This document shows, in pieces, positions 14,841 through 15,524 of a stretch of 64,000 nucleotides of DNA (position 1 is its first letter; each line of letters begins with the position of its first letter). Origin of the DNA: Candidatus Portnoybacteria bacterium (GTDB lineage: Bacteria > Patescibacteriota > Minisyncoccia > Portnoybacterales > GWB1-42-6); assembly GCA_028688325.1 (NCBI GenBank), contig JAQTYI010000001.1:168820-232819 (forward strand), written 5' to 3'. Position numbers and translations under genes: made by a program. The notes beneath the pieces were generated by a model, which searched no databases, had not been told where the DNA came from, and saw nothing but the letters and a program-made list of their open reading frames with translations.

Positions 14841-15119
14841 TCAGTATACTAGTATGTTGAATAATTATTAATTGTAGCGCTTATGACCTTTTCTTATTTT
14901 TTCAGCAGCGCTACGGGGAATCGGCCGCGGCTCTCGGCTCGCAGTTTACCCCGAGCATAATCGAGGGGCTCGCCTCGGCCTGGCCACCGCCTCGCGATTT
15001 TATCTGCTGATAAAATCGCTCCGGCGTTCTATTCCTAACGCGAGCCAAGCAGTTGGCTCGCTCGCTTTTATCTTTATAATAATTTTTTTATCTCAACAAT
15101 ATAAAAACCCTAAAATTTG

Positions 15120-15191
15120 TAGCGCTACGGGGAATCGAACCCCGATTCGCGGCTTGAAAAGCCGCTGTCCTAACCGTTAGACGATAGCGCC
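15120..15191 (-). tRNA. tRNA-Glu (anticodon TTC).
   Basis: Anticodon stem-loop GCGGC-TTTTCAA-GCCGC, T-arm GGGGTTCGATTCCCC, acceptor stem GGCGCTA/TAGCGCT. Confidence 0.75.
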
Positions 15192-15194
15192 AAA

Positions 15195-15443
15195 TCAATT
15201 TATAAAAATACGCTTATATAATTTTTCTCTCTCGCTATTATTACTTTTTAATTCGATTTCTCTCTTCAGTGCCGTCGCCTTGCTTGCATAAGCTTCGTAA
15301 TATTCCAGCATGTATGGTTTTCTTGATTTAGTCGACCTGACCTTTCCGCCGCTATGTTCAAAAAATCTTTTTCTCAAATCAGCGCAGCTACCTATGTATT
15401 TCCAATTCTCCTTCTCACTTTTTAATAAATATACATAATGCAT
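15195..15443 (-). CDS. GIY-YIG nuclease family protein.
   Basis: HYVYLLKSEKENWKYIGSCADLRKRFFEH is a GIY-YIG motif. The gene sits 3 nt upstream of tRNA-Glu. Confidence 0.75.
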   Translation of the reverse strand: MHYVYLLKSEKENWKYIGSCADLRKRFFEHSGGKVRSTKSRKPYMLEYYEAYASKATALKREIELKSNNSEREKLYKRIFIN

Positions 15444-15484
15444 AATTGTAGCTTGCCACCCTTCGGGTGGTCACCCGCAGGGTG

Positions 15485-15524
15485 AAAAAGCCGCTGTCCT
15501 AACCGTTAGACGATAGCGCCAAAA
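15485..15524 (-). repeat. Exact 38-nt duplicate of the tRNA-Glu 5' half (5' end through the anticodon loop, plus 3 nt of upstream flank), located upstream of the GIY-YIG gene.
   Basis: AAAAGCCGCTGTCCTAACCGTTAGACGATAGCGCCAAA is identical to 15156..15195. Confidence 0.85.

Follow-up and report, generated by a model that had tools for sequence, protein, structure and literature searches.

Organization of the tRNA-Glu locus

The DNA examined here is a window of 64,000 nucleotides (nt) from contig JAQTYI010000001.1 of a Candidatus Portnoybacteria bacterium (positions 168,820 to 232,819), and the element in question is a 329-nt cassette at its tRNA-Glu gene, in which a short gene for a GIY-YIG protein is combined with a double hairpin and a copy of the first half of the tRNA. 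All features of this locus are on the minus strand, and coordinates are those of the window. The intact tRNA-Glu(UUC) gene runs from 15191 to 15119, as identified by ARAGORN and by the Rfam tRNA model (65 bits). Upstream of it, a copy of tRNA positions 1–35 (15486–15520) ends within the anticodon, after U35, and together with the TTT ahead of it (15521–15523) completes an exact direct repeat of 38 nt (15157–15194 = 15486–15523), which was recovered by repeat search and has a blastn E-value of 7.5e-16 within the window. This 5′ copy sits 329 nt upstream of its original. The original prediction, made from the sequence alone, had recognized the copy as exact, with limits (15485–15524) that were one base off at each end.

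Following the copy is a 30-nt double-hairpin element (DHE; 15485 to 15456) of the form TCACCC-TGC-GGGTGA / CCACCC-GAA-GGGTGG; the window was searched for other canonical double hairpins and none were found. A linker (15444–15455) made up of CAAGC, which equals tRNA positions 36–40, and TACAATT lies directly ahead of the ATG of an open reading frame (ORF) of 82 aa (15443 to 15195) that matches Pfam GIY-YIG. The ORF starts 42 nt past the 5′-half copy, one less than first counted (43 nt), and ends 3 nt (TTT) before tRNA-Glu, as had been stated. The cassette thus delimited occupies 15157–15485 or, owing to the ambiguity from the 38-nt repeat, equivalently 15195–15523, and it is placed between a promoter-like site and the intact tRNA-Glu. 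This site, TTGCTT-17 nt-TATAAT (15561 to 15533), was read from the sequence 12 nt upstream of the 5′-half copy; a consensus promoter scan did not list it, its −35 hexamer matching at 3/6 positions only, and the same scan returned no promoter-like site immediately upstream of the intact tRNA-Glu. An Rfam scan of positions 13500–16500 at E ≤ 1 yielded tRNA only, and no intron, ribozyme or known small RNA. Among the 13 tRNAs of the window, tRNA-Glu is the only one with significant partial copies nearby, the copy of tRNA-Ser(tga) being degenerate. An assembly artefact behind the repeat is unlikely, because the repeat is far shorter than reads or k-mers and the architecture recurs across many independent assemblies.

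An empty site in a near-identical strain

A TsaD protein 99% identical to that of the window is encoded on two independent contigs, L090/L096 (ENA) and L091/L098 (JGI), and these contigs are 97.8–99.6% identical to the window over 15 kb (blastn). This sister strain possesses an uninterrupted promoter-like site and tRNA-Glu with no insert. Alignment with L090/L091, together with blastn against L096, revealed that the surplus of the window is exactly 329 nt and consists of the double hairpin, the linker, the ORF, TTT and tRNA positions 1–35. The aligned tRNA-Glu sequence is the same in the two strains, and the ~200 nt upstream and the first 90 nt downstream are likewise identical except for one T; overall, identity in the flanks is about 99–100%. 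Since the window and the sister strain differ by a single unit, the 5′ duplication belongs to a discrete unit; it is absent along with the cassette from L090/L091 and is not a feature shared with these relatives that lack the GIY-YIG gene. A homing-endonuclease insertion with target duplication, as put forward in the original prediction, is supported by the absence of exactly these 329 nt from a near-identical strain and by the recurrence of the same design at many tRNAs (see below).

Judged from these alignments, the 329-nt unit appears to have been gained or lost very recently. Only three structural differences were observed within the 15 kb common to the window and the sister strain, all of them at GIY-YIG/hairpin spots: the cassette itself, an exchanged cassette at tRNA-Ser and a polymorphic filler downstream of tRNA-Glu (both described below). 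A metagenome scan for the promoter/tRNA junction matched only the empty-allele contig that had already been found. The empty-site strain carries the same promoter-like sequence 12 nt upstream of tRNA-Glu itself; the site is identical in L090/L091 and similar in L093, and we regard it as the putative promoter for tRNA-Glu.

A minimal GIY-YIG protein

The 82-aa product matches the Pfam GIY-YIG family (PF01541) over residues 1–71, scoring 46.1 bits (cut-off 22.6; E 6.3e-12). The catalytic residues, namely the Tyr of GIY, the Tyr and Gly of YIG, the Arg and the Glu, are all retained, and Y5, Y16, G18, R26, H30, R61, E62 and K66 are invariant in 19 sequences. The closest protein by sequence is the stand-alone UPF0213 protein BH0048 (PDB 1zg2, E 1e-6). 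An AlphaFold (AF2) model with a predicted local distance difference test (pLDDT) score of 92.8 displays the beta-beta-alpha-beta-alpha-alpha topology of the GIY-YIG fold, and its best Foldseek superpositions were with 1zg2 (E 4.6e-4) and with the Slx1 nuclease domain (template modelling (TM) score 0.66–0.71, root-mean-square deviation 2.1–2.2 Å), whereas the catalytic domain of I-TevI fits the model less well (TM 0.48). A weak NCBIfam match to group I intron endonucleases (E 1.7e-4) was below the cut-off. The product is best described as a stand-alone predicted nuclease of the Slx1/UPF0213 type. The ratio of nonsynonymous to synonymous substitution rates (dN/dS) was about 0.03 versus the closest relative and 0.05–0.14 for other pairs, with synonymous sites saturated; these values indicate strong purifying selection on the ORF.

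The double hairpin and the leader

A total of 28 canonical double hairpins of the 6-3-6|6-3-6 format were counted in 243 kb of loci, versus about 0.6 in shuffles, and 13 of these 28 lie 9–38 nt upstream of a GIY-YIG start codon. Because the hairpins were chosen by pairing, the percentage of paired positions is circular, and weight is placed only on covariation and on the enrichment. Among 23 distinct 30-mers, nine of the 12 base pairs change on both sides; the covariation score was 0.656, versus 0.157 in shuffles and ≤0.07 for slid pairings.

The leader of the window, comprising the 5′ half, the hairpin and the linker (77 nt), is identical at 76/77 positions to that of L010, a relative with an ORF of 78% nucleotide identity and saturated synonymous divergence. 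The double hairpins of the two differ by 1 nt, and the linkers are identical at 12/12 positions. Identity of the 5′ halves could be explained by gene conversion with the neighboring tRNA; the hairpin and the linker are under direct constraint, because such gene conversion cannot account for their conservation. The 5′ copy has decayed in L001 and L009, where the hairpin and ORF are intact, which suggests that this copy is an arm or a scar and not an essential part.

Double hairpins without an ORF were found within protein genes and also in pseudo-tRNAs, where they occupy the T, D or anticodon loop. The 30-nt examples within called protein genes (tsaD and a tRNA-synthetase gene) are at 5217–5246 of L001 and at 3627–3656, 3792–3822 and 4339–4368 of L009. 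Thirty nucleotides correspond to ten codons, and in this respect the hairpins are reminiscent of the in-frame palindromic elements known from Rickettsia. The length of TsaD varies widely in the relatives, from 365 to 581 aa.

The same design at other tRNA and RNA genes

Database homologs other than the window's own protein numbered 17, with 44–79% identity, and came from Parcubacteria/Patescibacteria. The close orthologs (55–79% identity) that were looked up were all located directly upstream of tRNA-Glu(UUC), and orthologs share the tRNA-Glu/tsaD neighborhood in several Parcubacteria lineages and in L010. A wider scan for relatives, using one genome per species and a query alignment of the seven closest sequences, confirmed at least 523 relatives; 80 loci were kept and 88 non-redundant ORFs from other Patescibacteria were analyzed. 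One weak match (35% identity) was obtained in viral contigs, with no sign of a phage vector. The order of parts seen in the window, that is, the tRNA-Glu 5′ part, a double hairpin at the anticodon, a few tRNA bases, the ORF and the intact tRNA, was also observed in L003, L001, L009 and L010. L003 additionally has a pseudo-copy downstream, in which double hairpins interrupt the anticodon loop as well as the T loop.

The original prediction had suggested looking for this family next to other tRNAs. A same-strand tRNA starts between −12 and +30 nt from the stop codon in 30 of the 88 ORFs and at 31–110 nt in a further seven, with 16 isoacceptor types represented overall. By our own rough calculation, the chance of such a placement is <0.1% for a single ORF. 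An exact copy of ≥12 nt of the linked tRNA was present upstream of the ATG in 19/37 tRNA-linked ORFs. All of the mapped breakpoints of the tRNA copies are in loops: the anticodon loop for Glu, Trp and Cys, the T loop for Asp in L014, Tyr in L051 and Ser in L061, and the D loop for Asp in L015 and for Cys and Lys in L076. These breakpoints have no common sequence, and the tRNA duplications across the family span 7–60 nt. Two tandem units, each with a 5′ half, a hairpin and an ORF, are present in L030. Another informative case is L062 (1400–1930), where a tRNA-Trp with the acceptor stem GGGAGTG/CACTCCC is split around a palindromic hairpin (CCCCGCCGCTCGCGAGCGACGGGG), the ORF and an intact tRNA-Trp of different sequence (acceptor GGGTCTG/CAGACCC). 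In the anticodon loop, a TCCA repeat borders the hairpin. Such an arrangement, read from the sequence, suggests that certain elements come with a whole tRNA as a replacement.

The family is not confined to tRNA genes or to the double-hairpin format. Inverted repeats of 11–23 nt flank the ORF in 43/87 relatives, versus 0/87 controls, with the consensus CCCCCACACCAA ... TTGGTGTGGGGG; they abut or include the start codon and recur after the stop codon. Such loci include L018, L023, L032, L033, L041, L043, L048, L050, L054, L068, L074, L078 and L079 (around position 1501). No consistent target duplication of fixed length was observed outside the repeats of these relatives. The inverted-repeat units measure ~285–325 bp and resemble tiny transposon-like elements or elements with an RNase III-type stem. 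Some of these inverted-repeat relatives are located at tRNA 5′ ends, with 7–10 nt of the tRNA repeated (L059, L064, L086 and L088), at the 3′ end of opposite-strand tRNAs (L025, L044 and L075), or directly at the 5′ end of RNase P RNA (L021, L038, L047 and L067, about 1750–2300), the latter calls being RF00010 matches with E 1e-16 to 1e-26 that fall below the gathering score. In L056 and L073 (1400–1990) the ORF is within the 16S rRNA gene, as evidenced by an Rfam small-subunit rRNA match that spans the ORF, and in L071 it is 260 nt upstream of 23S rRNA. Taken together, flanking inverted repeats or a position within or beside the genes for 16S rRNA and RNase P RNA characterize about half of the relatives. 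With cassettes at tRNA, rnpB and 16S rRNA genes, the family is therefore tied to conserved structured-RNA genes.

Turnover of a second cassette at tRNA-Ser

A second cassette of the window (8422–8750, minus strand) consists of a hairpin and an 84-aa GIY-YIG ORF (8705 to 8451) and lies between tRNA-Ser(gct) (8842 to 8750) and tRNA-Ser(tga) (8361 to 8274). The 84-aa protein is 42% identical to the 82-aa protein of the tRNA-Glu cassette, and degenerate tRNA-Ser fragments are found at about 8387–8410 and 8425–8445. At the corresponding place in the sister strain (L096, 2965–3530), the 329 nt from the end of tRNA-Ser(gct) to ...ATAATCGGGAGG are replaced by 296 nt. The replacement carries a 77-aa GIY-YIG ORF that is only 35% identical and a different set of hairpins, while the flanks are about 99% identical. 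Because a replacement of this kind cannot arise by deletion, it implies horizontal input on this time scale.

The tRNA-Ser(tga) region (8261–8376, minus strand) also contains a leader, ACCCCGTAAAGAAGC (8376 to 8362), and a trailer, TTTCTTACGGGGT (8273 to 8261), that are complementary and would lengthen the acceptor stem in the precursor.

Older copies of the tRNA 3′ end and the downstream region

Downstream of tRNA-Glu, the tRNA 3′ end (T loop through acceptor 3′ strand) recurs as an exact copy of 17 nt (14907–14923, minus strand, = 15121–15137), which begins 195 nt beyond the tRNA and ahead of a TrpR-like gene; its blastn E-value in the 64 kb is 0.003. A 9-nt copy, TGTAGCGCT / AGCGCTACA (14873–14881, minus strand), represents the last bases and the trailer of the pseudo 3′ end. 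In 64 kb, chance alone gives about 0.5 occurrences of a 9-mer, and this copy is meaningful by context only, being kept in the sister strain and continuing the trailer of the pseudo 3′ end. Both copies had been described in the original prediction and are present at the positions given there. They are parted, in the window and in the sister strain, by ~31 nt flanked by AGCGCT, probably an insertion, and the fragment is continuous in L093, where it reads CGATTCCCCGTAGCGCTACAATT (...GTAGCGCTACAATT). Between the tRNA and the 17-nt copy is an older filler (14924–15118, minus strand) with an AT-rich stretch, perfect hairpins at 15040–15061 and 14994–15019, and a GC-rich stretch. It ends in CGGGG (14949–14953), which corresponds to the 5′ strand of a pseudo T stem. 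In the window, the sister strain and L093, the 3′ fragment is preceded by CGGGG and an unrelated insert, and the order CGGGG-insert-CGATT-CCCCG therefore denotes a pseudo T arm with an insert in its T loop, followed by the acceptor 3′ strand and trailer.

The cassette-free sister strain has both 3′-end copies and most of the filler, and so does L093 (69% TsaD identity). Because the copies are retained in a cassette-free strain, they are older scars and not products of the cassette insertion; speculatively, an earlier round of an element of this kind may have left the decayed pseudo-tRNA 3′ part as its scar. The filler is itself polymorphic between the near-identical strains, with ~53 nt more in the window (14937–15035 vs L090 3105–3165). 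At 14994–15019 the window has the perfect hairpin GCGATTTTATC-AGCA-GATAAAATCGC, and the sister strain has CCGAATTTTCGG.../...AAAATTCGG there. Small hairpins near tRNA-Glu are seemingly exchanged independently of the ORF.

L095 and L092 are without the filler, the 3′ fragment and the TrpR-like gene. The neighbors of the cassette are syntenic core genes in relatives, and the gene slot between the tRNA-Glu scar and a glycosyltransferase gene (14373–14840, vs L093 2692–3159) is variable: in the window, as in the sister strain, it contains a YerC/TrpR-like gene; in L093 the occupant is a gene for an equally long (155 aa) C39-like peptidase, and in L095 the slot is empty. No mobility gene was found near this TrpR-like slot.

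Proposed cycle of the cassette

We favor the interpretation, at a probability of about 0.65, that the locus is a free-standing, homing-type GIY-YIG mobile cassette that regenerates its tRNA-Glu target. Mobility and the family pattern are well supported, and a nuclease-driven homing step is suggested by analogy. The cassette brings together the 30-nt double hairpin with its 12-nt linker, the 82-aa nuclease gene and a copy of tRNA-Glu positions 1–35, such that the resident tRNA-Glu is kept intact right after the ORF and the displaced 5′ half is left upstream. Transcription of the cassette would start from the tRNA promoter, with a leader made up of the tRNA half and the hairpin. Because no promoter-like site lies just before the intact tRNA, the ORF and the tRNA are probably co-transcribed, and RNase P would separate the tRNA from the shared transcript. 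Gain would proceed through recombinational repair, for which the upstream 1–35 copy and the intact tRNA would provide the homology arms. The initiating break would probably be made by the nuclease in or near the loop regions of cassette-free tRNA genes; such a nuclease-made break is proposed because of the analogy with phage SegB and the mobile ORFs (mORFs) of fungal mitochondria. Loss would occur via recombination between the 38-nt repeats.

Several observations weigh against this interpretation. The occupied allele still holds an intact tRNA identical to that of the empty allele (the displaced copies carry hairpin inserts), and a simple homing model does not account for immunity to re-cutting, as the intact tRNA is presumably still a target. 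Both the Pfam analysis and the AF2 model indicate a single GIY-YIG domain without a DNA-binding module such as those of I-TevI and SegB, and the site specificity of a protein that consists of the catalytic domain only is hard to explain. No terminal inverted repeats were seen by eye around the ORF of the window, although half of the relatives have them. The strong purifying selection (dN/dS 0.03–0.14) could equally mean a host-beneficial role. Finally, the distribution is patchy: L010, an orthologous locus with divergent upstream sequence, bears the cassette at a TsaD identity of 62% to the window, whereas the cassette is missing from L090–L095, which are closer than L010 (TsaD identity of 69–73% and 99%). 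Two gains, or else several losses through the repeats, would account for this pattern, and prolonged vertical inheritance with recurrent loss via the repeats fits no less well than a recent gain; both alternatives are within the usual gain–loss cycle of such elements.

The loop breakpoints without a common sequence, taken together with the Slx1-like fold, point to recognition of structure or of interrupted palindromes. It is conceivable, if rather unlikely, that a minimal Slx1-like GIY-YIG protein recognizes structure and not sequence, and acts as a hairpin-directed transposase or homing enzyme at RNA-gene loops, which would constitute a new class of mobile element. Its targets could be its own double hairpin or terminal inverted repeats as well as stem-loops in the genes for tRNA, rRNA and RNase P RNA, and the ORF-less hairpins in pseudo-tRNAs and protein genes would be non-autonomous derivatives. 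A further version holds that the transcribed leader, with 35 nt identical to the target and a fixed double-hairpin scaffold, could help to guide the nuclease; such a guide-RNA function of the 5′ half is weakened because the 5′ copy has decayed in L001 and L009 beside an intact ORF and hairpin.

Alternative explanations

The unit could alternatively be an old resident, a domesticated gene that is inherited vertically and serves the host, for example in tRNA metabolism or by resolving hairpin or branched DNA where RNA genes are highly transcribed, with the sister strain having lost it via the 38-nt repeats. Low dN/dS values (0.03–0.14) with saturated dS are in keeping with such a history, as are the orthologs in the same tRNA-Glu/tsaD neighborhood of several Parcubacteria lineages and L010 and the fact that the nearest fold is that of Slx1, a structure-specific nuclease; direct repeats would also make a precise loss easy. 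Vertical descent is difficult to reconcile, however, with patchiness among close relatives, with copies at 16 tRNA types, at rnpB and inside 16S rRNA, and with tandem units and foreign tRNA fragments, and at the Ser locus, where the flanks are ~99% identical, the non-orthologous replacement calls for horizontal input. We consider domestication improbable. A transposon-like mode, in which the nuclease would serve as a structure-specific "transposase" for hairpins or RNA-gene stems, perhaps acting on single-stranded DNA and inserting in loops, has a smaller claim still. It would make the small hairpins ORF-less derivatives comparable to miniature inverted-repeat transposable elements, and it draws on the 11–23-nt inverted repeats (43/87 relatives vs 0/87 controls), on the position of every mapped breakpoint in a tRNA loop, on the ORF-less double hairpins in pseudo-tRNA loops and protein genes and on the Slx1-like fold. 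Yet there is no fixed-length target duplication, the tRNA duplications of 7–60 nt fit recombination better, and the cassette of the window is without inverted repeats; to our knowledge, no GIY-YIG DNA transposase has been described.

Two further possibilities, both raised in the original prediction, fared poorly and were rejected. Integration by an integrase at tRNA-Glu, with the repeats as att sites and the neighboring genes as cargo, might be read from the 17-nt 3′-end copy downstream and the variable neighboring gene slot, and Williams (2002) reportedly placed the classic integrase crossover sites at the anticodon-loop and T-loop sublocations. This is highly unlikely here: Pfam analysis detected no integrase or recombinase domain among the large ORFs scanned between about 4.9 and 33.5 kb, the cassette duplicates the 5′ half of the tRNA, and the 3′ copies, which are unchanged in strains without the GIY-YIG gene and common to strains with and without the cassette, are poor candidates for att remnants of this element. 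The repeats bracket no cargo, since both lie between the tRNA and the TrpR-like gene, whose slot is variable; the glycosyltransferase is not cargo either, because it directly follows tRNA-Glu in L095 and is syntenic in several other relatives. A decayed tRNA-Glu allele in which a group I intron encoding a homing endonuclease had occupied the anticodon loop, next to a duplicated intact copy, is the least probable of all. In its favor, the anticodon is where the break falls, with U as the last base of the 5′ part and G as that of the hairpin insert, and the sub-threshold NCBIfam match (E 1.7e-4) is to group I intron endonucleases. Against this, 42 nt plus 3 nt of non-coding sequence leave no room for a ribozyme, Rfam matched no intron within 13500–16500, the fold is nearer to Slx1 than to I-TevI, and the sister strain differs by a single, one-step indel of 329 nt that holds the second 5′ half.

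Relation to known systems

The homing-type cassette that we favor combines features already known with others that appear new. A free-standing GIY-YIG gene at tRNA genes and an endonuclease ORF that carries a spare target part both have precedents. Open-access papers and bioRxiv were searched, and neither tRNA-linked minimal GIY-YIG cassettes nor double hairpins in bacteria of the candidate phyla radiation (CPR) were found described there, nor were loop-specific tRNA breakpoints or the inverted-repeat variant at rnpB and 16S rRNA. The family is abundant (at least 523 relatives) and suggests a possible biological role for stand-alone UPF0213/Slx1-like proteins. It is also of practical concern, as tRNA annotation and completeness estimates of CPR genomes can be misled where such tRNA fragments or pseudo-tRNAs split by hairpins are present.

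The integrative elements that target tRNA genes are said (Williams, 2002) to be flanked by partial tRNA duplications, with breaks in the anticodon and T loops; the cassette differs from them in having no integrase, an insert of only 0.33 kb and a duplication of the 5′ part. Group I introns reside in the anticodon loops of bacterial tRNAs, and some contain an endonuclease ORF (PMC3984707). They share the insertion point with the cassette, which has no ribozyme or splicing and preserves function by duplication instead of RNA-level excision. Regarding the enzyme, a 2006 survey treated stand-alone GIY-YIG proteins as a minimal, possibly ancestral form of unknown role (PMC1564403). The UPF0213, YhbQ and prokaryotic Slx1-like proteins (PDB 1zg2, 1ywl) have the same minimal domain, size and catalytic residues as the cassette protein, and the literature searched contained no link between UPF0213-type proteins and tRNA genes, hairpins or mobility.

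The hairpin of the cassette is likened to the DHEs of fungal mitochondrial DNA, which were reportedly the subject of Paquin et al. in 2000. These are short GC-rich elements with two adjacent stem-loops that are regarded as mobile (PMC4618339). The cassette family likewise has two adjacent GC-rich stem-loops kept by compensatory changes. The resemblance is one of format: here the format is a fixed 6-3-6|6-3-6 in bacteria and, unlike fungal DHEs, the hairpins are 9–38 nt before a GIY-YIG start codon or in the loops of tRNA pseudo-copies.

Among free-standing enzymes, the closest counterpart is SegB of phages T4 and T6, a GIY-YIG homing endonuclease encoded in a tRNA gene cluster (PMC2330249; PMC13096335). 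SegB cleaves tRNA genes internally, at the T-arm-like motif RAWTSGAAC, its homologs are statistically associated with tRNAs of many isotypes, and the breaks lead to UvsX/UvsY-dependent tandem amplification of tRNA and segB (PMC13096335). As in the cassette, the GIY-YIG gene lies among tRNA genes without being part of an intron. The phage protein is larger and multi-domain. The cassette, carried by a bacterial (CPR) chromosome and with only one weak viral relative found, encodes 82 aa of catalytic domain alone, nearer in structure to Slx1 than I-TevI. Neither a double hairpin nor loop-broken tRNA fragments have been reported for SegB, unlike the cassette.

A counterpart for the spare target part is provided by fungal mitochondrial mORFs (Allomyces atp6; Glomus atp6, atp9, cox2 and nad3), where an endonuclease ORF inserts together with a replacement gene part; the target stays functional, the native part is left as a displaced fragment, and some mORFs encode GIY-YIG enzymes (PMC3630166). 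The mORFs are much larger ORFs of an organelle that duplicate the 3′ (C-terminal) end of protein genes, whereas the cassette of the window, on a bacterial chromosome, duplicates the 5′ half of a tRNA. Homing endonuclease genes usually spare their host by means of a self-splicing intron or an intein. The cassette appears to use a third route, known mainly from fungal mitochondria, in which the element brings a spare target part and the target stays whole; here, the target is an RNA gene, the enzyme is of the smallest known GIY-YIG form, and the host is an ultra-small CPR bacterium, a group with poorly known mobile DNA.

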